The notes below the pieces were generated by a model. That model was not told where the DNA came from, did no database searches, and worked only from the letters and a program-made list of their open reading frames with translations. Positions 1,058 through 40,141 of a stretch of DNA of 64,000 bases are shown here, in pieces; the stretch's first letter is position 1, and each line of letters opens with the position of its first letter. The position numbers were made by a program, and so were the translations under genes. Origin of the DNA: Gammaproteobacteria bacterium. GTDB taxonomy: Bacteria > Pseudomonadota > Gammaproteobacteria > GRL18. The DNA is taken from positions 30,630-94,629 of the forward strand of contig JALWRI010000121.1 in the NCBI GenBank assembly GCA_026994225.1, read 5' to 3'.

Positions 1058-3901
1058 GTGAGTAAAGAAAAACAAGACAGTAAATACAAGCAAACATTGA
1101 ATTTACCCTACACTGATTTCCCTATGAGAGGGAATTTGGCACAACGTGAACCGAAAATGATAGCACAATGGCAAGAACAAAAGTTATATTATCGTTTGCG
1201 TGAAATAGCAAAAGGACGGGAAACGTTTATCCTGCATGATGGTCCTCCGTATGCAAATGGTGATATACATATTGGTCATGCGGTAAATAAAATTTTAAAA
1301 GATATTATTATAAAGTCTAAAACCTTATCGGGTTTTGATGCACCGTATGTCCCTGGTTGGGATTGTCATGGTTTACCGATTGAATTAAATGTGGAAAAAA
1401 AGCTCGGTAAAGTAGGTAATAAAGTTGATGCAAAGACATTTCGCCAAGCCTGTAGGGACTATGCAAAAAAACAAGTAACCGGACAAAGTAAAGATTTTCA
1501 ACGCTTAGGCGTATTAGGCGATTGGGATAATCCGTATTTAACCATGAATTATCAAAATGAAGCCGATATTATCCGTTGTTTAGGCGCTATTATTGAACAA
1601 GGGCATCTACATAAGGGAGCAAAACCCGTACATTGGTGTAGCGATTGTGGTTCTGCATTAGCTGAAGCAGAAGTTGAATATCAAGATAAAGAGTCGATAG
1701 CGATTGATGTGCGTTTTAGTGTGCTAGATAAAGCGGTATTATTAAATAAAGTAGGGGGTAATGTCGATCTTATAGATAGTACATTGCCCATCTATGTAGT
1801 GATTTGGACAACTACACCGTGGACATTACCGGCAAATCAGGCAGTTGCTCTGCATCCAGAGTTAGATTATGTCATCGTATCCAAAGGGGATGAATATCTT
1901 ATTTTAGCAGAAGCCTTGTTAAGTGATAGTATGTCCCGTTATCAACAAGATGATTATATGGTTGTGGCACGTTGTCAAGGACAGGATTTAGAAGGGATAT
2001 TATTAGCGCATCCTTTTTATACCCGTCAAGTACCGATTATTTTAGCCGAGCATGTTACCACCGATGCTGGTACAGGCGCAGTACATACTGCACCAGGACA
2101 TGGTCAGGAAGATTTTGTAGCAGGACAGCAATATGCTTTAGCCGTAGATAATCCTGTTAATGCACACGGGTGTTTTGTAGATGGTACAGAACTTTTTGCA
2201 GGTCTGCATGTTTTTAAGGCAAATCCTATGGTGGTGGAGGTATTACAAGATAAGGGGATGTTGGTACATAAAGAACATATCCAGCATAGTTATCCTTTTT
2301 GTTGGCGACATAAAAAAAACCCCATTATTTTTAGAGCAACCCCACAATGGTTTATCAGTATGGATAAAGCCCATTTGCGGAATAAAGCAATGGCGGCAGT
2401 GAATGAAGTAAGATGGTTACCAGCATGGGGAAAAGAACGCATAGAAAGTATGTTGCGTAATCGTCCAGATTGGTGTATTTCAAGACAACGTACCTGGGGT
2501 GTTCCAATTCCTTTATTTGTGCATACTGATACGGGGGCATTACATCCTGATAGCCCTGCACTATTAGAAAAAGTAGCCAAAAAGGTGGAAGAAAAAGGTA
2601 TTGATGCCTGGTTCTCATTGCAAGCAGAAGAATTACTAGGTGCCCAGGCAAGCGATTATGAGAAAGTAAGCGATACGCTTGATGTATGGTTTGATTCAGG
2701 TGTAACTCATTATAGTGTATTAGATCGGCGTGAAGAATTAGTCTTTCCAGCACAATTATATTTAGAAGGTTCCGATCAACATAGAGGATGGTTTCAGTCA
2801 TCATTATTAACGGCTTTAGCAAGTAAGGGGCAAGCGCCATATCAAGAAGTATTAACACATGGTTTTACTGTGGATGCGAAGGGCGAAAAAATGTCCAAAT
2901 CCAAGGGCAATATTGTTGCACCACAAAAAATTGCAAATACCTTGGGAGCAGATATTTTACGTTTATGGGTTGCATCAACAGATTATAGCGGTGAAATGTC
3001 GGTGTCAGATGAAATTGTGAAACGTACCGCTGATGCTTATCGACGTATCCGTAATACGGCTCGTTTTATGTTGGCAAATTTAGAAGGTTTTGAGCCAGAA
3101 AAAGATGCTCTGGCTACTGCAAATTTATTACCGTTAGATGCGTGGGCTATCGCAAATATGGCAGCCTTACAAGAGAGATTGATTAAAGATTATGATAACT
3201 ATGATTTTCATAATATTTATCAACGCTTACATAATTATTGTTCTGAAGATATGGGAAGTTTTTATTTAGATGTTATTAAAGATAGACAATATACGACACA
3301 AAAAAATAGTATTGCCCGCCGATCAGCACAAACAGCGTTATATCATATTATTGAAGCCTTTAGCCGTTTGATTGCTCCGATCTTGAGTTTTACTGCAGAG
3401 GAAATTTGGGGGTATATTCCAGGGCAGGTAGAACGGGAAAAATCAGTATTTTTCACACAATGGTATCGCTTGCCAGCGGTAGCATTACCTGCAAGCTTGT
3501 CGATGTCATACTGGCAAGATTTATTACAAGTTCGGGTAGCCGTAAATAAAGCTTTGGAAACATTACGGAGTCAAAAAGTGATTGGGTCTTCATTAGATGC
3601 CGTTGTAACATTATATTGTGAAGAGGCTTTATACGATAAATTATACTATTTAGGTGATGAATTGCGTTTTGCCTTAATTACTTCGTATGCAGCAGTGAAA
3701 CCTGCAACAGAACGAGATGAAAATAGTCATCCTACAGAGTATGAGGGATTATGGTTGGCAGTAGCTGCATGTAAGGAGAAAAAATGTGAACGATGTTGGC
3801 ATCGACGTGAAGATGTAGGAACTATCGCAACGCATCCTACGTTATGTGGACGGTGTGTAAGCAATGTAGAAGGGGAAGGAGAACTTCGGAGTTTTGTTTG
3901 A
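1058..3901 (+). CDS. ileS: Isoleucyl-tRNA synthetase
   Basis: 947 aa with a GTG start. Carries 'HIGH'-type '[11 protein letters not shown]', 'KMSKS' and a C-terminal Zn-finger (CxxC...CxRC). N-terminus '[20 protein letters not shown]' is typical of IleS. Confidence 0.97.
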
Positions 3902-6874: not shown

Positions 6875-7399
6875 TCCGCCCGTACTAGAGGCAAAGTAGG
6901 AGATACAATAGCAAAGCAGAAAGAAATACAAGAAGAATCGCTGGAAAAATAACTTTGGAAATCAGCAGATAAACTTAGAAAAAATATTAATTCCGCTGAA
7001 TGCAAGCATGTTGTTTTGGGATTGATTTTTCTAAAATATATCTCTGATGCCTTCGAGGAGTTGTATGCCACATTAAAAGCGGGGGAAGGTGAATATGCGG
7101 GAGCTGATCCCGAAGATAAGGACGAATACAAAGCCGAAAATGTCTTTTTTGTACCACAAGATGCCCGCTGGTCGCACCTGCAAGCCCATGCCAAGCAACC
7201 CACTATCGGTAAAACCGTTGATAAGGCAATGGATGCCATTGAAAAGGAAAACACTTCATTAAAAGGCGTGCTGCCTAAAGTCTACGCCCGTCAAAACCTC
7301 GACCCAACCAGCCTGGGCGAACTGATTGATCTTATCAGAAATATCGCTTTAGGTGATGCTAAATCCCGTAGCGCCGATGTGCTAGGGCATGTGTTTGAA
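6875..7399 (+). pseudogene. hsdM: Type I R-M methyltransferase subunit HsdM, N-terminal fragment only (in-frame TAA at 6950-6952, catalytic domain deleted)
   Basis: '[39 protein letters not shown]...ADVLGHVFE' is the HsdM N-terminal domain. There is no plausible start codon, a nonsense codon is present, and the sequence switches to HsdS-like at about 7400. Confidence 0.8.
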
Positions 7400-8030
7400 C
7401 AAATGGCAGAAACGCTGTTTCGGCAGTGGTTTGTGATCGATGCGCGGGAGGATTGGGAGGAGAAGCCTTTATCTTTTTTTGGAGATATTGTTTGTGGTAA
7501 AACCCCGTCTAAAAAGAAACCAGAGTATTATCAAGGCAAAATACCATTTATAAAAATTCCTGATATGCACGGCAATAGTTATGTTTTTAATACAACAGAT
7601 ACTCTGACAGAAGAAGGTAGTAATTCACAAAAAAACAAGTTATTACCACTAAAATCAATATGTGTAAGTTGTATTGCTACAGTAGGGTTAGTTTCCTTAA
7701 CAACAAAAAATAGCCATACCAATCAACAGATAAATTCCATTGTTCCACATAAGAATGAATAATGAATATAGGTATTATTTGTTTTTACAGATGAAATCTT
7801 CATATAATTTACTACATGCTATGGCAAGTGCTGGAACAGCAACATTAAATTTAAATACTGGTAATTTTTCGAAAATAGAAATTCCACTACCTGATGAAAT
7901 AATATTGCAAGGGTTTCATAACGAAGTGGAACCATTATTTGATAAAATATATAAAAATCAAACCCAAATCCGCACTCTGGAATCCCTCCTGCCTAAATTA
8001 ATGTCAGGTGAAATAAGGGTGAAATTTTAA
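7400..8030 (+). pseudogene. hsdS: Type I R-M specificity subunit HsdS, distal half only, frameshifted near 7765
   Basis: '[10 protein letters not shown]...[24 protein letters not shown]...NQQINSIVP' (TRD). After a frame change comes 'GTATLNLNTGNFSKIEIPLP...LLPKLMSGEIRV', the conserved HsdS C-terminal helix. Confidence 0.8.
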
Positions 8031-8032
8031 TC

Positions 8033-8716
8033 ATGGAAAAATATCTAAATAAATATCGAACAACATCCACACGGCTGCAGAATTGGGATTATCGGTGGGC
8101 TGGGGCGTATTTTATTACCATCTGTACCCATAATCGCGTCCATTATTTTGGTGGAATTGATAACGAAAAAATGAAATTATCCAATATCGGTATCATTGCC
8201 GATATTTTGTGGTATGAAATAAAAAACCATGCCCGGAATATTGAATTGGGGGAATATATTGTCATGCCAAACCATATTCACGGAATTTTGATTTTGAATC
8301 ATGATGATACCGATACCGATACCGATACCGTAGAGACAAGGCATGCCTTGTCTCTACCATCACCATCACCATCACCATCACCATCACCATCACCATCACC
8401 ATCACCATCACCATCACCACAATCAAAAACAATAGGACAAAAACGATTTCAAAATCAGGGAAAAAATACCATTTCGTCAATTATTGGTTCGTACAAATCG
8501 GCGGTGACAAAACACGCCCACCGTTTGGGTTATGATTTTAAATGGCAACCCCGTTTTTGGGATCATATTATCCGCAATGAAGATAAATACCAACGCATTG
8601 CCCAATATATTATGAATAACCCCAAACAATGGGCGATGGATAAATTAAATAATGGCGTTGCTAATCAGGTGTTAGAAACATCAGCAAGATACAATCATGA
8701 GGAATGGATGATATGA
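8033..8716 (+). CDS. IS200-like HUH/Y1 transposase family protein (REP-associated tyrosine transposase, RAYT-like) with an internal repeat insert
   Basis: HUH motif 'MPNHIHGILIL'. Downstream Tyr region 'IIGSYKSAVTKHA' and 'RFWDHIIRNEDKYQRIAQYIMNNPKQW'. Starts 2 nt after the hsdS stop. Confidence 0.8.
   Translation: MEKYLNKYRTTSTRLQNWDYRWAGAYFITICTHNRVHYFGGIDNEKMKLSNIGIIADILWYEIKNHARNIELGEYIVMPNHIHGILILNHDDTDTDTDTVETRHALSLPSPSPSPSPSPSPSPSPSPSPQSKTIGQKRFQNQGKNTISSIIGSYKSAVTKHAHRLGYDFKWQPRFWDHIIRNEDKYQRIAQYIMNNPKQWAMDKLNNGVANQVLETSARYNHEEWMI
8306..8329. repeat. (GATACC)x4 microsatellite inside the RAYT-like ORF (encodes DTDTDTDT)
   Basis: Read directly: gataccgataccgataccgatacc. Confidence 0.97.
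8330..8357. repeat. 28-nt perfect palindrome GTAGAGACAAGGCATGCCTTGTCTCTAC (encodes VETRHALSL)
   Basis: Identical to its own reverse complement. Lies between the two microsatellites. Confidence 0.97.
8358..8419. repeat. (CATCAC)x10 microsatellite inside the RAYT-like ORF (encodes about (PS)10P)
   Basis: Read directly. Ten perfect hexamers from 8358 to 8417 plus a partial unit. Confidence 0.97.
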
Positions 8717-8780: not shown

Positions 8781-9776
8781 ATGCAAGATCAAATCGTTAT
8801 TTATCAATCTAAAGGAGGGCAGGCTCAAGTTGAACTTCGTTTGGAGCAAAACACTTTTTGGTTATCTCAAAAACAAATGGCTGTTTTATTTGACAAAGAC
8901 AGTGATACGATTGGTTTACATCTTAAAAAAATATATAAAGAAGGTGAATTGGATGAAAAGGCAACTACCGAGCAATACTCGGTAGTTCGTCAGGAAGGTA
9001 AGCGTCAGGTTAGACGCAACATTAAGCATTACAATCTCGATGCCATTATCTCCGTTGGCTACCGTGTCAATTCCAAACAAGGCACGCAATTTCGCATCTG
9101 GGCAACACAACATCTAAAAAACATTCTGATTCAAGGCTACAGCCTGCATCAACAACGCTTTGAACAAAACGCCCAAACCTTGCAACAAGCCCTGAAACTG
9201 ATTGAAAAAACCGTAAAATCGCCAGATTTAACGTTGAATGCAGGTCGTAGTTTAACCGAGATTGTCAGCCGTTATACGCAAACCTTTTTATGGCTACAAC
9301 GCTATGATGAAGGCTTGCTGGACGAACCCAAAGGGCAAGTAGGCGGAGATTTACCCAGCCCTGAGGAGGCAATGCAAGCCTTAATGACCTTAAAACAGGA
9401 TTTAATCGCTCGCAAACAAGCCACCGATTTATTCGCCAGACCCCGCAGTGATAGTTTGGCAGGTATTTTTGGTAATCTCAATCAAAGTGTTTTTGGCGAA
9501 GCAGCATACCCTACGATAGAAAGCAAAGCCGCCCATTTGTTGTATTTTGTGGTAAAAAACCACCCGTTTTCCGATGGCAATAAACGCAGTGGCGCATTTT
9601 TATTTGTCGATTTTCTCAATCGCAATGGACGATTACTCAATCAGTAAGGCGAGCCAGTGATTAATGATACAGGCTTGGCGGCGTTAAGCTTGCTGGTTGC
9701 AGAATCCGACCCCAAGCAAAAAGAAACGATAATTCATTTGATTATGCAGATGTTAAACAGGAAGGATGATGAATAA
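8781..9776 (+). pseudogene. RhuM-family N-terminal domain fused to a Fic/DOC domain, interrupted by an in-frame TAA at 9645-9647
   Basis: N-terminus 'HYNLDAIISVGYRVNSKQGTQFRIWATQ' is RhuM-like. Fic motif 'HPFSDGNKRSG' is present. After the TAA the same frame continues as 'GEPVINDTGLAALSLLVAESDPKQKE...' to the TAA at 9774-9776. Confidence 0.7.
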
Positions 9777-11801
9777 AATCACTGAAAATGCTATCGAAAC
9801 CTTCTGCATCGAACTACTGTAAAAGCAGGGGTACGAATATATCTACGCCTCTGATATTGCCCCAGATAGTGATAATCCGCAACGCAGCAGTTTTGAAGAT
9901 ATTTTATTAAACAGCCGTCTAACGGCTGCTATTGCCAGAATCAATCCAACGATTCCGCACGATGCCCGACAAGAGGCAATTAAAGAAATCAGTCGCATTC
10001 ATTCCCCCGAATTACTGAGTAATAACGAGACTTTTCACCGAATGCTCACCGAAGGGGTGAAGGTGAGCTACCAAAAAAACGGCAGCCAGCGCGGTGATCT
10101 GGTGTGGCTGGTGGATTTTACCAACCCACAAAACAATGATTTTGTGGTTGCCAATCAGTTGACGGTGATTGAAAACGGGGTAAATAAACGCTCTGATGTG
10201 GTGTTATTTATCAATGGCTTGCCGTTAGTGGTGATTGAGCTTAAAAGTGCTGCGGATGAAAACGCCACGATTAAATCCGCTTACCAACAACTGCAAACCT
10301 ACAAACAAGCCATTCCCAGCCTGTTTACTTATAACGGTTTGATGATTATTTCAGATGGTCTGGAGGAGAAGGCGGGTTCACTCTCGGCTGGACTCAGCCG
10401 TTTTATGAACTGGAAAACTGCTGATGGCAAGATCGAGGCCTCCCATCTGGTCAGCCAGTTGGAAACCCTGATTAAAGGGATGCTGAATAAAGAAACCTTG
10501 CTGGATTTGATTCGTCATTTTATTGTGTTTGAGAAATCCAAAAGCGAAGACCCCAAAACGGGCGTGGTGACGATAGAGACGGTAAAAAAGGGACAAGGCA
10601 TGCCTTGTCTCTTAAAAAATTGCTACAGGTTGCCTCAGGTGGGGTAATTTTTTCCACCATTCAAAAGTTCCAACCCGATGAAGGCAATGTTACTGGTAAA
10701 AAGGTGGTGTATGGTTTTGCTAAATATATGTGTGATGCCCTGCCGAATGCCACTTATTTAGGGTTTACAGGTACGCCAATAGAAAGCACCGATACCAACA
10801 CCTCCGCTGTTTTTGGTAATTATATTGATGTTTATGATATAGCCCAGGCCGTTGAAGATGGGGCAACGGTGTGTATTTATTATGAATACGCAAAAAGCCA
10901 AGGCAAAATGGACGCAGTTAGAAGCGTTAATCGGTAGTGAAAATCGCATTAAAAATATTGCTCAGGATATTGTCAGTCATTTTGAGCAACGCCGGGCCGT
11001 GTTTGAGGGTAAGGGCATGATTGTTGCCATGAGTCGCCGTATTGCCACTGATTTATACGCCCAAATCATCAAGATCAAACCTGACTGGCATTCCGATGAT
11101 CTGTATAAAGGCGTGATTAAAGTGGTGATGACCTCCAGTTCATCCGATGGTCCTGAAATTGCCAAGCACCATACCACCAAGGCACAGAGAAAAATGCTGG
11201 CAGATAGAATGAAACACCCTGATGATAAACTTAAATTGGTGATTGTGCGGGATATGTGGCTAACAGGCTTTGATGCCCCCAGTTTGCACACATTATATAT
11301 TGATAAGCCAATGAAAGGGCATAAAACCTGATGCAAGCGATTGCACGGGTGAATCGGGTTTATAAAGACAAGCCGGGCGGCTTGATTGTTGATTATTTGG
11401 GGATTGCATCCGATCTGAAAAAAGCCCTGTCTTTTTATTCCGATGCGGGCGGAAAAGGCGACTCGACTATTTTACAAGAGCAAGTCGTTGAACTGATGTT
11501 GGAGAAGTTGGAAGTGATTGCTCAGTTGTTTTATGGCTTTGCTTATGAACAATATTTTGCCGCAGATACTGCCCAAAAACTATCACTAATTCTAGCGGCG
11601 GAAGATCATATTCTAGGTTTGGAGGATGGCAAGAAACACTTTATGAATGAAATCATCGCTTTATCTAAAGTTTTTGCCATTGCCATACCCCATGAACAGG
11701 CAATGGATGTTAAAGAGGAAATCGCTTTTTTTCAGGCAGTAGAGGTGTTGAAAAAATTTGGTGAAAAGCAAATCACTCGATGTAAACATGGGATTGTCTG
11801 A
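9766..11801 (+). pseudogene. hsdR: Type I restriction enzyme R subunit HsdR, multiply disrupted
   Basis: 'MMNKITENAIETFCIELL*KQGYEYI' has an in-frame TAA at 9820-9822. 'VVLFINGLPLVVIELK' is the nuclease-domain region. Helicase motif I and the DEAH box are missing, while '[11 protein letters not shown]' and 'LGFTGTPIE' remain. Frame changes occur near 10610, about 10900 and 11330 ('GHKT*MQAIARVNRV'). The 3' end is replaced by a tnpB relic. Confidence 0.85.
10588..10613. repeat. Second copy of the RAYT-gene palindrome (AAGGGACAAGGCATGCCTTGTCTCTT) at the hsdR deletion junction
   Basis: The 18-nt core GACAAGGCATGCCTTGTC (10592-10609) is identical to 8335-8352. The 24-nt stretch matches 23/24. 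A6 runs flank both sides. Confidence 0.95.
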
Positions 11802-11986
11802 GTTGTGGCAGCACTGGTATTGATCGGGATATTAACGCCAGTGGCAAGATCCGGCAGCAGGGGATTTTGAAACCAAAGACGGCAGGTCTTATCGTTTTTG
11901 CTGATGGAGGCTTGGATAATTCCGGCACACCGCCGGTTGTTGCTAATAAAGTCAGAAGCCTTGCCTGTTAAGGCGGGGAGAAGTTA
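11786..11986 (+). mobile_element. IS200/IS605-family TnpB C-terminal relic with right-end-like hairpin
   Basis: The frame from 11786 reads 'TWDCLSCGSTGIDRDINASGKIRQQG...' (CxxCG...DRDxNA zinc-finger/RuvC-III region), with its stop at 11969-11971. A hairpin at 11959-11978 (gccttgcc/ggcgggg, with G-T pairs) follows. Confidence 0.6.
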
Positions 11987-13276
11987 CGGAATATCCAAAT
12001 CTAATTCAGGAGAAAGGGGTTTATTATCCTTTTTTTGTTGTTTTTCTTCTTCTTCTTGTTCTTTTAATGCAGCTTCCCAAGGATCTATGCTGTTATCTGG
12101 TGGAGTATCCCCCGCTTCTTTTTGTGCAGTAGCTTGTGCTTCTTCTTCTGCCTGCTCTTTTAATGCCGCTGCCCAAGGGTCATCCTCTGTTCCTTCTTCT
12201 GCTATACTGTTATTGTTATGGGCAGCTTGTTCTGAAAAGGCCTCTTGCCATAGTGCATCAGCATCCTCTTCTTGACTTTCAGTGGATGTATCTGCTACAA
12301 GCGTGTCTGTTTGAGTTGTTGCATGATGCTCTTTTTCTGCTTGCTCTTTTAATGCTGCCGCCCAAAGGTCATCTTCTGCCCCTTCTTCTGCTATATTATC
12401 ATTGTTATGAGCAGCTTGTTCTGAAAAGGCTTCTTGCCATAGCGCATCGGCATCCTCTTCTTCTGTGTTATCAGTACTTTCTGCTGTAATGTTTGTTTCT
12501 GTTTCTGTTTCTGCTACTATTTGGGTTGCTGGCTCTGAGCTAGCAATAGTATCAAATGTTTCTCCTACTATGGTCTTATCATCTACTAAGGATTCTTCTA
12601 TAGTACTTGTAGCAGCAGGAGTTGTGGGCGTAGAGGCAGTGGGGTCTATTTTTTGACGCAAGTGTAAGATAGCTTTTAATATTTCATTAGCTTGAATATT
12701 TTGTGTTTCAGGGTTAGTATGACCATATTCAGTTACCAGTGTTGTGAGTGTTTCTAATGCTTCATTAAGATGCTCATTGACATTATTATTATTTTTTTCT
12801 AATTGCTGTATTTGATACATTAAATTCATTTTTTCTTGATCTAATTCCTGGCATTGCTGAGATAATGCGGCTACTTCTGTTGCATTGGCACTACCCGATG
12901 TATTTTTAGTAATAGTAAAAAAATGATTATTCATGGTACTTAATTGCTTGCGCAAGGTAAGTAATGCTTGTGGATCACGATTGCGTTCTAAATAAATCTG
13001 ACTAAAAGTTTTAATAAAATCCGTTTCTACTTGTAATAACTTCTCACTCTCCTCATCAATATTTCCACTGTGATCATGTACCTCTTTTAATAATGTTTTA
13101 ATTTCTAATTTACGGTTATCATTGGTGAGATTAGTGATCTGGCTTAATTGATTGATGGCATCTAAATCTGCTTTTTTTTGACGTAAAACCCGGACAACGA
13201 TAATAATGGTAATAATGGCAAGAACCACTGCAATTTCACTGATAATAATTAATAAGCTAGGAATGGTTTCTGACAT
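11984..13276 (-). CDS. Membrane-anchored coiled-coil protein with an acidic C-terminal tail carrying five 'D-x-[LP]-W-x-x-A-[FL]-[KS]-E-Q' motifs
   Basis: 430 aa. N-terminal TM 'LLIIISEIAVVLAIITIIIVV', a Q/N/E-rich coiled-coil region and a repeat tail. The start overlaps the upstream vWA gene stop by 1 nt. Confidence 0.75.
   Translation of the reverse strand: MSETIPSLLIIISEIAVVLAIITIIIVVRVLRQKKADLDAINQLSQITNLTNDNRKLEIKTLLKEVHDHSGNIDEESEKLLQVETDFIKTFSQIYLERNRDPQALLTLRKQLSTMNNHFFTITKNTSGSANATEVAALSQQCQELDQEKMNLMYQIQQLEKNNNNVNEHLNEALETLTTLVTEYGHTNPETQNIQANEILKAILHLRQKIDPTASTPTTPAATSTIEESLVDDKTIVGETFDTIASSEPATQIVAETETETNITAESTDNTEEEDADALWQEAFSEQAAHNNDNIAEEGAEDDLWAAALKEQAEKEHHATTQTDTLVADTSTESQEEDADALWQEAFSEQAAHNNNSIAEEGTEDDPWAAALKEQAEEEAQATAQKEAGDTPPDNSIDPWEAALKEQEEEEKQQKKDNKPLSPELDLDIP
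12143..12460. repeat. Intragenic tandem duplication, period 189 nt (63 aa), about 1.7 copies
   Basis: 'EEDADALWQEAFSEQAAHNN..IAEEG.EDD.WAAALKEQAE' occurs at residues 273-314 and again at 336-378 of the 430-aa protein. Confidence 0.9.
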
Positions 13277-30557: not shown

Positions 30558-33500
30558 ATGAAGCTACACAACACCCCTTTGGGGATACGTTTTTTATTAA
30601 GCATTATCTTACCATTATTATTAGTGATATGGTTTATTAAATATTCTTTGCTTATCATGGAAGATATGTGGGAAAAACAGTATGTGATAGAAAAAAATTA
30701 TATAATTACTGAGCATTTTAGACGTATTCAATTTCTATTCACACAATTAAGTTTGCAACAACGCCAATATTTATGGACAAATCAAACCGCTTTACTAAAT
30801 GAATATCAACGTATTTCCTTAAAATTAGATGAAACGATACAACAAATTATTGTAGCCAATATTGGCGATGAAAAAATTACGCAAGACATAGAAATGGTGC
30901 GTATTTATATACATAATTGGAAAAAATTGGCATTAAAAGAAATTAATCAACGTAAGAAAATACCTGAAAAAGTAATAACGATAAATGATGTGGTGCGCTT
31001 TGTAGAAAAAGGGCAAGGTAAGTTATTTATGGATGATTTACAGGTTGCTTTAGATAATTTGTTAGAAAAAGTAAAAGAGTATAAGCAAGATTTGCTACGT
31101 TATTGGATAATAGCGATCGCTAAAGATATTGCTGATATGGAAGCAGGATTGAAAGGCTATTTATTAATAGGGGAGGATAAATATTTAGAATCTTATAATA
31201 ATGCTCAAATTACGTTTAGAAATAATTTATCTAATTTACGCAGTCTATTAAAAGGAGACTATGAAGACGAAACCTATGAATTAGATGTGCTATTATCCAG
31301 CTGGATAAAAAATATTGCGGAAAAACAAATTGAATACCGTAAAAAGATAAATAAGAAGGTATTGACATTACAATATCTTGCAACGCAAGTAAAGAATAAT
31401 ATGTACCAAAATATTTTTTCCAGCCTAAATGAGAATATTCAAAATATACTAATTAAATATACTAATCAAAGAAAGGAAATTATTGATCAGCTTGCAAGCA
31501 ATAAAGAAACTATCAAGCAGGATATTATTTTATTAGGTTCATTGATTATTATATTTAGCTTATTATTGCTATGGATTAGTATTCGTAGTGTTATACAGCC
31601 AATAAGAAAGTTGGTTTATATTACAAAAGAAGTTGCCAACGGTAATCTAAGTATTCGAACGCATATTAGCTCTCAAGATGAAATTGGACAACTTTCCAGG
31701 CAGCTGGATAAAATGTTAGCAGAATTAGAAGAAAACAGGAAAAAAGTAGAAGTTGAACAGCAAGAACGTGAAGCAGCAGTACAAAAATTACAAAACATTT
31801 TAGTAGAACGAGAGGAATATAATTGGTTAAAGACACAGTTAGCAAGTATCACCCAGTTATCACAAGGAATAAAAGAAACCAAAGTGTTAGCACAAAAAAT
31901 TATAGCCCTGATAGCTAAACAAGTAGAAGCTGCACAAGGGGTGTTTTATATGATTAATATCGCAGAAAATAAAGAACCATCATATTCATTATTAGGTAGT
32001 TATGCCTATACACACAGAAAGCATATCAATAATAAAATTATGCCAGGAGAGGGATTAGTTGGACAATGTATAGTCGAAAAAGAAAATATTATTTTAACGC
32101 AAGTCCCTAATGATTATGTAGTTATCTCTTCCGGTTTAGGAGAAGCAAAGCCTTTGATGATTATGGTATTACCAATATTATTTGAGGGGCAAGTAGTAGG
32201 GGTTATTGAGCTATCTACCTTTACAGTTTTTACCGATTTACAGCAACATTTACTAAATGAAATTACTCAAAATATGGGAGTCATTATTAACAGTATTTTA
32301 AATCAGGAAAAAACAGCAGTATTATTATTAGAATCACAGCAGTTAACGTTAGAATCACAGATGAAAACAGAAGAGCTGCAAGTTCAAACAGAGGAATTAC
32401 AGTATCAAAGTAAATGTTTAAAGCAGGCAAATCAAGAATTACAGGAAAAAACCACTGTCTTGGAACAACAAAAAGAAGAAATTGAAGAATCGAAAAAAAT
32501 TATTCAAATTAAAGTACAGGAATTAGAACAAACAAGCCGATATAAATCTGAATTTTTAGCGAATATGTCGCATGAATTGAGAACACCGCTAAATAGTTTA
32601 TTGATTTTATCTAAAATCTTATCAGATAATGAAGAAGGTAATTTAACACCAGAGCAGGTACATTCTGCAAAGGTCATTTATGAAGGAGGACAAGATTTAC
32701 TCAATTTAATTAATGATATTTTAGATTTATCCAAAATTGAAGCACATAAATTACAGTTATCTATTGAGAATGTAGCTTTAGATACGATACTCAATAATAT
32801 AGAGAGAATGTGTCGACCTTTAGCAGAGAACAAACATTTAGATTTTAGAATAGAAAAAATTCCACCTTTACATGAATACCTTAAAACGGATGCAAAACGT
32901 GTAGAACAAATATTGCGTAATTTATTGGCCAATGCAGTAAAATTTACGCACACTGGTGCGGTGACTCTGAGTGTAAAAATGGATCAAAACAAACAATGTA
33001 TAGGATTTATTGTAAGTGATACAGGAATAGGGATCGCTAAGGATAAATATCAAATTATTTTTGAAGCATTTCAACAATCAGATGGTTCAATTAGCCGCAG
33101 TTTTGGAGGCACAGGATTAGGTTTAACTATTTCTAAAGTATTAACGGAGTTGTTGCAAGGACGTATAGAGTTAAGTAGTGAAGAAAATGTGGGAAGTACC
33201 TTTATTTTGTGGTTACCATTACAAGAAGAATCTCCTACAGCAATGACAATAGAAGAAAATACCCCTATAGATAAGGAAATAAATATTGAAACAGATAAAC
33301 AGGATGCACATCAAGGTACATTATTAATTTATGAAACCAACCCAAAGTTAGTCAGTTTGTTAATGGAAATATCACAGCAAAAAGGTTATCAATGTGTAAG
33401 GGTAGATCATCCAGAGGATATACAAAATATAGCTAAAAGATGTCATCCTGACGCAATAATAATGAGTAAAGCAAATAAAGAAGAGATATTTAAACAACTT

Positions 33501-38992: not shown

Positions 38993-40141
38993 ATGTCTGA
39001 TTGTTTAATTATTGGTGGTGGTTTAATTGGGTTACTGACGGCTAGAGAATTGCTCAAGTCAGGATTAAGTGTAACAATTTTGGATAAAAGCCAAATGGGA
39101 ACGGAGTCATCTTGGGCTGGTGGGGGTATTCTTTCGCCTTTATACCCGTGGCGGTATGAACCCAGTATTACTGCGTTAGCACAATGGAGTCAACAGCATT
39201 ATCCAGATGTATTACGACAAATCCAACAAGAAGCAGATTATGATCCAGAATTACTTTATAGTGGTTTATTATTATTAAATTTAGGTGCAGAAGCTCAGCA
39301 AGCAAACGATTGGGCAAAGCAGTATCATTATCAATTAAAAACCATAGCAGTAGAGCATATTCAGCGATATGAAGCAGGTATTGATGAACAAATAGTACAC
39401 GATGCGTACTTAATGCCAGATATTGCACAAGTGCGTAATCCCCGATTAATGCGAGCTGTTTATGCGAGTGTAAAAAGTTTAGGTGCAAAATGTGTTACTA
39501 ATACTACAGTGCAACAGATATTAACAAAAGACAATAAAGCGATAGGGGTAGAGACCAGGCAGGGAGAATTTTTAGCTAAACATATTGTCTTGTGCAGTGG
39601 AGCATGGACGGCTGAACTATTACAAGGTTGCGTGGATATTCCCTATATTGTTCCGGTTAAAGGTGAAATGATTGTTTTTCAGGCAAAGCCTGGGATTGTT
39701 GCACATATTGCGTTATCAGATGGACATTACCTTATCCCTCGTAAAGATGGACATATTGTGGTAGGAAGCAGTATTGAATATAGCGGTTTTAAAAAGGAGA
39801 TTAGCCAAAAAACCGGTAATAAATTACGTCATTTTGCTTGTCAATTATTTCCTTTATTAGAGCATTATCCCATTGAGCGTCATTGGGCAGGATTACGTCC
39901 AGGTTCTCTTTCAGGTATCCCATATATTGGTCAACATCCACAACTTGAACAATTATATATTAATACGGGACATTATCGTAATGGAGTGGTAACAGGTTTA
40001 GCATCGTGTCGTTTATTGGCAGATATTTTATTGGAAAGAAGCCCCGTTATTGATCCTGCTCCGTATGCGCTTAACGCAGAACGTTTAGTAAAAGATAGTA
40101 GTATGATAGAACCAGAAAAACGAGCAGATTTATTATTTTGA
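38993..40141 (+). CDS. thiO: FAD-dependent oxidoreductase, glycine oxidase ThiO-like
   Basis: 'CLIIGGGLIGLLTAREL' dinucleotide fold, 'SWAGGGILSP' and 'TGHYRNGVVTG', typical of ThiO/DAO. Confidence 0.6.
   Translation: MSDCLIIGGGLIGLLTARELLKSGLSVTILDKSQMGTESSWAGGGILSPLYPWRYEPSITALAQWSQQHYPDVLRQIQQEADYDPELLYSGLLLLNLGAEAQQANDWAKQYHYQLKTIAVEHIQRYEAGIDEQIVHDAYLMPDIAQVRNPRLMRAVYASVKSLGAKCVTNTTVQQILTKDNKAIGVETRQGEFLAKHIVLCSGAWTAELLQGCVDIPYIVPVKGEMIVFQAKPGIVAHIALSDGHYLIPRKDGHIVVGSSIEYSGFKKEISQKTGNKLRHFACQLFPLLEHYPIERHWAGLRPGSLSGIPYIGQHPQLEQLYINTGHYRNGVVTGLASCRLLADILLERSPVIDPAPYALNAERLVKDSSMIEPEKRADLLF

Follow-up and report, generated by a model that had tools for sequence, protein, structure and literature searches.

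What brings a palindrome that belongs to a transposase gene to the exact point at which a neighbouring restriction gene has lost part of its sequence? The question is raised by a stretch of 64,000 nt from a gammaproteobacterium (positions 30,630 to 94,629 of contig JALWRI010000121.1, GenBank assembly GCA_026994225.1), referred to below as the window. It holds a decaying type I restriction-modification (R-M) island in which a gene for a REP-associated tyrosine transposase (RAYT, also TnpA_REP) stands upstream of a pseudogene of hsdR, the gene for the restriction subunit R. The RAYT gene carries a repetitive extragenic palindrome (REP), here called the master REP, whose ends GTAG and CTAC form its 'feet'; a copy of this palindrome lies in hsdR (Table 1). 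We conclude that the hsdR palindrome is probably a degenerate, foot-less REP copy, seeded from the RAYT gene 2.2 kb upstream and bridging a deletion that is linked to it.

The palindrome pair and the deletion in hsdR

The hsdR palindrome (AGGGACAAGGCATGCCTTGTCTCT) and positions 8332-8355 of the RAYT gene (AGAGACAAGGCATGCCTTGTCTCT) match at 23 of 24 bases and share an identical 18-nt core, as the initial annotation had stated. The window contains these two copies and none more; no chance matches are expected, with 0 found in 100 dinucleotide-preserving shuffles. A candidate third copy at 39548-39561 (GTAGAGACCAGGCA) was rejected as a lone half-site without an inverted partner, coding for GVETRQG in a 382-aa open reading frame (ORF; 38993-40141). 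Each of the two sites holds a single palindrome with no partner palindrome within 40 nt, and a search of the window for other GTAG-footed hairpins found none. The strand orientation of a perfect palindrome is undefined. Folded as single-stranded DNA, the copy at 8330-8357 forms a hairpin of −11.3 kcal/mol (z −6.35) and the hsdR copy at 10589-10612 one of −8.0 kcal/mol (z −4.77); the stem is thus retained in hsdR. The hsdR copy is without the GTAG/CTAC ends of the 28-nt palindrome, being flanked by AAAG...TCTT, and since the feet GT[AG]G and C[TC]AC are missing it is a degenerate derivative and not a canonical REP. In the literature searched for the 18-mer no paper containing the palindrome sequence was found. 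On the minus strand (10592-10609), the hsdR copy together with a T6 run scores as intrinsic-terminator-like, probably a by-product of the native A-run.

The junction was defined by comparison with intact HsdR orthologues from metagenomes (75-91% amino acid identity, 1075-1100 aa), three of which, L124, L126 and L127, served as alignment references. The blastn alignments to all three end at 10589 and resume at 10611 or 10612, with 370 reference nt skipped. The absent protein corresponds to residues 275-397 of the 1076-aa HsdR of L126 (123 codons, LAAYHQYY...GGVVWHTQGSGKS...ITDRNDLDD...VENRDQ), and helicase motifs I (GSGKS) and Ia have gone with it; the frame changes after ...VVTIETVKK. The alignment therefore confirms that the palindrome sits exactly where the HsdR sequence jumps and changes frame, and that motif I is lost in the jump; the skipped segment, initially put at roughly 250 aa, turns out to be about half as long. 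The only bases between the deletion endpoints that do not belong to hsdR are the 21 nt of 10590-10610. Had the palindrome-encoded residues been native HsdR sequence, no deletion would have been found at this point; the 21 nt are foreign and the deletion is real. At the edges of this filler, 1 nt on the left (10589, A) and 2 nt on the right (10611-10612, CT) can be assigned equally to the palindrome and to native hsdR, which makes them junction microhomology.

Both flanks are native. In all 10 orthologues the left flank reads ACGGTTAAAAAA (or a synonymous sequence) and continues with CTGGCGGCC, coding for LAA; orthologues have CTYAAAGAATTR as the right flank, coding for LKEL and continuing into LQVASGG. 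The A6 runs that bracket the palindrome were correctly placed by the initial annotation (10584-10589 and 10614-10619); their meaning is another matter. The left run is found as ACGGT(T)AAAAAA, with VKK at its end, in 10/10 orthologues, the right one corresponds to CTYAAAGAA (LKE) in orthologues vs CTTAAAAAA in the window, and orthologues keep the two TAAAAAA sites 370 nt apart. As native codons, the two runs are silent on the mechanism of insertion, and a target-site duplication of the kind left by insertion sequences (IS) or miniature inverted-repeat transposable elements was rejected, both A6 runs being native codons in 10 orthologues. The proposal that 'gatagagacgg', just upstream, is a partial echo of the palindrome arm was likewise dropped: these are native TIETV codons, and the related locus L121 has an identical ACGATAGAGACGG with no palindrome after it.

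The window copy is the only bridge over the 370-nt deletion, in which motifs I-Ia were lost together with the linker that bears REPs in related loci (see below). A palindrome landing at random in the pseudogene (~2 kb) would fall on one of its three internal junctions about once in 700 cases by our own estimate, so that a link between REP and deletion is almost certain.

The RAYT gene, its REP and related loci

Subclass 2.4 of the TnpA_Y1 proteins, which equals Bertels' RAYT Group 4, is marked by the motifs NH[IFV]H, WQ and YIxNNP (Quentin et al. 2018, PMC6006769). The RAYT gene of the window has the HuH motif as NHIH, within ...VMPNHIHGILIL, which agrees with the subclass-2.4 pattern, and the WQ and Y motifs as KWQPRFWDH and QYIMNNPKQW. 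It matches the NCBIfam model REP_Tyr_transpos with 61 bits, below the cut-off of 80, an insert splitting the match in two, and the Escherichia coli TnpArep structure (PDB 4ER8) with an E-value of 2.6e-7 over 40 residues; a Pfam search gave no match at E<0.01, and PADLOC none. We found more than 3475 homologues, several of them named 'REP element-mobilizing transposase RayT'.

The master palindrome is translated in frame within the RAYT gene as VETRHALSL. In most of the 120 homologues examined, VET[RGT]HALSL is encoded by the palindrome or by a base-pair-compensated variant of it; the stretch is hypervariable and of low complexity, a few homologues are without the palindrome, some have two or three copies, and one (P0107) reads it in another frame. 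Low-complexity or microsatellite expansions comparable to those of the window flank the REPs of RAYT homologues. A 'double-foot' REP with 5' GT[AG]G and 3' C[TC]AC, and the carriage of the REP inside its own gene, are both described for subclass 2.4 (PMC6006769). As the arrangement in the window equals that description, the palindrome of the RAYT gene can, judged by its sequence, be taken as an already known feature of a known family. The initial view of it as a RAYT-associated hairpin was correct: the hairpin is a double-foot REP, cognate to the TnpA_REP gene of subclass 2.4 that contains it.

An exact scan for the 18-nt core, with one genome per species (596 Gb), gave at least 148 occurrences on at least 120 contigs; about nine are expected by chance, by our own estimate. 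The hosts belong to Bacteroidota, Desulfobacterota, Cyanobacteria, Chloroflexi, Spirochaetes, Planctomycetes, Ignavibacteria, Deinococcales, Cloacimonadota, Omnitrophota and Alpha-, Beta- and Gammaproteobacteria, including Thiotrichaceae and Ca. Marithrix. The counts that follow are among the matches listed, which cover more than 10 phyla and include cultured isolates. The full 28-mer is the usual form; both feet are present in 76/148 copies, and in 74 of these 76 the tenth base pair is complementary (e.g. GTAGGGAC...GTCCCTAC). Only ~10 copies lie in or beside a RAYT-like gene and 101/108 evaluable copies are outside long ORFs, the seven within long ORFs being in four RAYT genes, one RAYT-adjacent ORF and two histidine kinases (L016 and L052, with the REP in a loop). 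No direct-repeat flanks were found at the copies in other genomes. REPs are usually considered lineage-specific; this one is a dispersed, mostly extragenic element of many phyla. Half-copies or microsatellites often adjoin the core in these loci (L001-L120), and in some Bacteroidota and Desulforhopalus contigs the core is part of tandem arrays that repeat every ~65-70 nt or ~140-170 nt (L002 937-1164, L018 12-159, L080 71-1105, L118 56-588).

The recurrence of the element in hsdR emerges from related R-M loci. The gap between hsdS and hsdR is a cargo slot: a RhuM/Fic gene occupies it in the window and in 24 related loci, and a RAYT-like gene lies upstream of hsdR, on the same strand and within 1.6 kb, in 14/67 evaluable orthologous loci (L121, L128, L132, L137, L139, L149, L161, L172, L181, L183, L184, L187, L194 and L202). 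Wherever the RAYT gene of the slot has a GT[AG]GAGAC-type double-foot REP (L121, L128, L132 and L181), hsdR has a matching copy. The RAYT gene of L121 carries GTGGAGACGCAA-aata-TTGCGTCTCCAC, and its hsdR has the same stem with the loop catc, plus a half copy; in the other three the RAYT gene carries GTAGAGACGCAATGCATTGCGTCTCTAC and hsdR holds the identical 18-nt core. All four hsdR copies are in the variable linker after RA[TVS]G[HF] (~residue 300), which falls within the interval deleted in the window. In this R-M operon family, the presence of a RAYT gene between hsdS and hsdR is thus accompanied by an hsdR copy of the REP that this gene carries. In the comparison with sister loci suggested at the outset, the linker of the RAYT-less L124, L125 and L126 is native and holds no REP. 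In a rough neighbour-joining tree of HsdR N-termini, loci bearing REP and RAYT are interspersed with RAYT-less sisters, which indicates several gains that track the presence of RAYT. This recurrence of a RAYT gene with its own REP in the adjacent hsdR is a new comparative result; the type of REP is itself known.

The REPs of L121, L128, L140 and L180 replace the native LEKQTPVSQV codons and are not cleanly added to them, which fits insertion with loss of target DNA. In the same linker, after RA[TS]G[HY], L140, L180, L133, L146 and L168 have unrelated GTAG-type palindromes (e.g. GTAGGGGCGAACC...GTTCGCCC) with no adjacent RAYT gene; the loop is a site at which REPs in general land or are tolerated.

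Of seven RAYT homologues whose neighbourhoods were sampled, four, all among the best 32 matches, are in type I R-M loci with varied gene orders (L204, L205, L206/L207 and L208/L209). The association is not family-wide, since the three more distant homologues P0045, P0096 and P0060 stand in an A2M/PBP1C operon, next to HipBA and at hisC/hisB, respectively. It belongs to the RAYT clade and not to the REP generally, given that no type I R-M genes were found near the 120 REP-bearing genome loci. In the literature searched a link between RAYT and type I R-M systems is not mentioned; two apparent matches were rejected, the hit being the author name 'Raytselis'.

Three further rearrangements were seen in related hsdR genes. 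At 6657-6713 of L121, a 57-nt in-frame insertion between WKTAD and GK, which is not the RAYT REP, consists of nested or interleaved inverted repeats (CTGCCTGTGCGT...ACGCACAGGCAG / ACCTGTCT...AGACAGGT). At 7270-7436 of the same locus, an unrelated sequence interrupts hsdR behind VESRD, at a distance of one codon from the right endpoint of the deletion in the window; this sequence has a reverse-strand ORF, reaches the contig end and resembles an IS insertion. In L122, the closest sister hsdR (92% amino acid identity in the N-terminus), two internal segments are inverted (2786-2858 and 2996-3184) and others deleted; the ends of one inverted segment are within ~8 nt of the window endpoints 10611 and ~10690, a pattern due either to hot spots of breakage common to both loci or to a contig that is chimeric.

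Origin of the junction and decay of the island

The REP would be seeded into the adjacent hsdR by RAYT itself or through repair or replication at its hairpin, and the deletion would form with the REP or at it. The REP may have replaced target DNA in one step, by RAYT catalysis or by template switching; it may have been in the linker first, with deletions later running up to the base of its stem; or a crossover may have joined two REP copies. As far as this sequence goes, the REP may have caused the deletion, may have arrived along with it or may only mark the point where later deletions came to a halt. In characterised TnpA_REP enzymes, GTAG guides cleavage at CT (Corneloup et al. 2021, PMC8266576). 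The block of identity in the window starts at AG and ends at CT, so that on either strand it stops at the CT of the 3' foot, and CT is also the start of the native right flank; these block ends weakly favour involvement of an enzyme.

Several observations weigh against our reading. A CT-to-CT strand transfer is at odds with the left junction, where native hsdR has CAG|TTTTTT on the bottom strand, and the hsdR copy has neither of the GTAG feet that the characterised enzymes need or use, so that it cannot now be a canonical mobilisable REP. With only two copies in 64 kb, the activity of the RAYT protein in this genome stays putative. Two other deletions in hsdR and the one in hsdM-hsdS arose without a REP, the stop at codon 18 may be older than the REP-linked event, and the two assemblies with this junction, that of the window and L123, may have their reads in common. 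The strongest form of the proposal, that the RAYT clade of this slot would repeatedly write its REP into hsdR and that the window would preserve a RAYT-catalysed CT-to-CT footprint, we class as quite unlikely.

If the REP came first, a full double-foot copy would have lain in frame in the linker after RATGH of a working hsdR and, after the death of the gene, two ordinary deletions, one of ~75 nt to its left and one of ~290 nt to its right, would have extended as far as the stem base and taken the feet away. The linker, inside the deleted interval, is indeed a recurrent REP site (L121, L128, L132 and L181), the REP of the window is in an open frame with the downstream part of hsdR, and other ordinary deletions exist in the pseudogene. 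However, two independent deletions are needed, both ending within 2-4 nt of the stem base, and no remnant of the linker remains on either side of the REP; we see this course of events as possible, though we lean against it. A single step would suffice for template switching or gap repair, as in microhomology-mediated break-induced replication (MMBIR), with no RAYT catalysis needed: a nascent strand would leave hsdR at the A-run, copy ~21-24 nt of the RAYT palindrome and, by microhomology, re-anneal 370 nt downstream. In favour of such a step are the microhomology of one base (A) at the left edge and two (CT) at the right edge, a nearby donor (2.2 kb) on the same strand and a filler without the feet that a transposase would need, and the linker codons of L121, L128, L140 and L180 were replaced rather than added to. 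What it leaves unexplained is the symmetry of the copied block about the centre of the palindrome and the recurrence of the RAYT REP in hsdR, with full feet, in several lineages; the copy also has one mismatch to its presumed donor. We consider this explanation unlikely.

Recombination between REPs at two sites of hsdR could have deleted the 370 nt between them and left one copy, a perfect palindrome being a direct and an inverted repeat simultaneously. Several REP or half-REP copies do occur together in some related genes (P0065, P0069, P0115 and L132), and it has been noted that an inverted REP dimer can become a double-foot REP when its centre is deleted (PMC6006769). Yet a simple crossover of full REPs would have kept the feet that the surviving copy is without, and in no orthologue is there a REP at either endpoint, so that we give this reading little credence. 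The junction might finally be an artefact of metagenome assembly, in which a short palindromic repeat led to a mis-join or a collapse. There is some ground for suspicion in L123 (European Nucleotide Archive ERZ23491061, sample SAMN10217895), which has a 100-N scaffold gap (1218-1317) exactly at the RAYT palindrome and its microsatellite, and in the odd inverted hsdR segments of the sister contig L122. But L123 is a second assembly with the same junction, at 100% identity over 5289 nt, the remaining decay of hsdR is independent and ordinary, and the usual final k-mers of assemblers exceed a 24-nt repeat; an artefact is barely credible.

We therefore retain seeding of the hsdR copy from the RAYT gene, with a linked deletion, as the preferred reading. 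The R-M system was decaying anyway (Table 1): it has at least six lesions, of which the deletion linked to the REP is not demonstrably the first. The 105-nt deletion takes out helicase motif II (DEAH) and has no palindrome; beyond the lesions of the table, hsdR has a further frameshift near 11325 and a 3' truncation by which the last ~234 codons are gone. The hsdM-hsdS fusion misses ~2.3 kb relative to L121, including the methyltransferase catalytic domain, again with no palindrome (window 7398 and 7397 map to L121 2278 and 4627). The palindrome was found at none of the other hsdR and hsdM-hsdS lesion junctions in the window; deletion in this island thus needs no REP. The intact frame and motifs I and II of a functional type I HsdR are not present in the window. 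The initial annotation had tied the RAYT hairpin to a gene-inactivating rearrangement. The tie holds; that the palindrome killed the gene is unproven, because of the earlier stop, the palindrome-free deletions, the frameshift and the 3' truncation.

Table 1. Features of the R-M island in the window
Feature	Position	Strand	Basis or remarks
Fusion ORF of HsdM N-terminal domain and HsdS fragment	7016..7762	+	Pfam HsdM_N and Methylase_S
TnpA_REP/RAYT-like gene, subclass 2.4 (Bertels Group 4)	8033..8716	+	Intact, 227 aa; HuH, WQ and Y motifs
(GATACC)x4.2 microsatellite at left foot of REP, coding for DTDTDTDT	8306..8330	+	Tandem Repeats Finder
Master REP, perfect 28-nt palindrome GTAGAGACAAGGCATGCCTTGTCTCTAC with GTAG and CTAC 'double feet'	8330..8357	.	
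(ACCATC)x10.7 microsatellite at right foot of REP, coding for (PS)n	8356..8419	+	Tandem Repeats Finder
RhuM/Fic-DOC gene, in the hsdS-hsdR slot with the RAYT gene	8781..9647	+	Intact; Pfam Virulence_RhuM and Fic; PADLOC PDC-S23, E 2e-118
hsdR pseudogene, type I restriction subunit R	9769..11744	+	At least 4 reading-frame pieces; Pfam and NCBIfam matches, orthologue alignment
TAA nonsense at hsdR codon 18 (ELL*KQ), upstream of the palindrome junction	9820..9822	+	
Native hsdR codons V-K-K (GTAAAAAA), left edge of deletion	10582..10589	+	
Foot-less REP copy, 23/24 to master	10589..10612	.	blastn of junction to orthologues
Native hsdR codons L-K-K-L (CTTAAAAAATTG), right edge of deletion	10611..10622	+	
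Second hsdR deletion, 105 nt in frame, between GGCAATGT direct repeats	10681..10690	+	blastn 10-nt overlap, tblastn gap
Third hsdR deletion, ~90 nt (~aa 528-556) with frameshift, no palindrome	10883..10891 (~10886)	+	

Two observations concern the neighbours of these genes. Inside the RhuM/Fic gene, at 8963-8987, lies a 25-nt near-perfect palindrome AACTACCGAGCAATACTCGGTAGTT that codes for TTEQYSVV. Similar palindromes with compensated changes occur in L170 (2921-2945), L188 (1880-1904) and L201 (918-942); the sequences hint at a possible conserved hairpin. Downstream of hsdR, a 430-aa minus-strand ORF (11984-13276) contains a ~157-nt tandem duplication at 12117-12462 (12117-12273 vs 12306-12462, 85% identity).

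Significance and comparison with known systems

The spread of REPs is still described as poorly understood (PMC8266576). Natural junctions of a REP copy with target DNA are rare, and the window supplies one, a new instance of an element of known kind: a foot-less REP at a deletion junction in a decaying hsdR. The sister loci display the same seeding from RAYT to hsdR without a large deletion, and this recurrent pattern of RAYT, hsdR and REP is the part worth follow-up. Comparative genomics and a simple cleavage and strand-transfer assay can thereby test local, cis-proximal seeding of REPs and events that join a REP with a deletion. The link of this RAYT clade to type I R-M systems would, if general, mean that the accessory-gene slot of these systems has one more passenger, not recognised before. 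Should the CT-to-CT footprint prove true, it would be direct genomic evidence on the dissemination of REPs and would imply that a RAYT can disable or modulate the adjacent restriction subunit; should none of this hold, the locus would be an ordinary decayed REP copy in a decaying pseudogene.

Among the closest known systems is the subclass 2.4 REPtron (PMC6006769), with which the window shares the motifs NH[IFV]H, WQ and YIxNNP, the feet GT[AG]G and C[TC]AC and a patchy spread over phyla. Unlike that system, the RAYT gene of the window has no flanking REPs, only the internal one and one degenerate copy 2.2 kb away, and it stands within a type I R-M operon; restriction genes are unmentioned in PMC6006769. 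REPINs (Bertels & Rainey 2011) are likewise palindromic repeats associated with a RAYT and thought to be spread by it, but a REPIN consists of two inverted REPs and a spacer, whereas the window has single perfect palindromes of 24-28 nt, from a family widely shared between phyla and with two copies in 64 kb.

The IS200/IS605 elements (IS608 and ISDra2), which transpose as single-stranded DNA, and TnpA_REP (PMC8266576) are comparable in their HUH-Y1 enzyme, hairpin substrate and lack of target duplication, and in that the block of the window ends at the CT of the 3' foot, with a right flank beginning with CT. The window differs from IS200/IS605 in having no two-ended element and a left junction that misfits a CT or CA site. 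Microhomology-mediated deletion with templated filler, as in MMBIR, also combines a deletion with a short insert from a few kb away and 1-2 nt of microhomology; here, however, the filler is a specific transposase-associated hairpin that recurs in the same gene elsewhere. Finally, intragenic GTAG REPs and the Rickettsia palindromic elements (Di Nocera et al. 2013, PMC3733652) are repeats within coding genes, usually in tolerant loops. The copy in the window departs from them by replacing 370 nt, shifting the frame and having lost its GTAG feet, whereas the hsdR genes of L121, L128, L132 and L181 and the kinases of L016 and L052 match them exactly.

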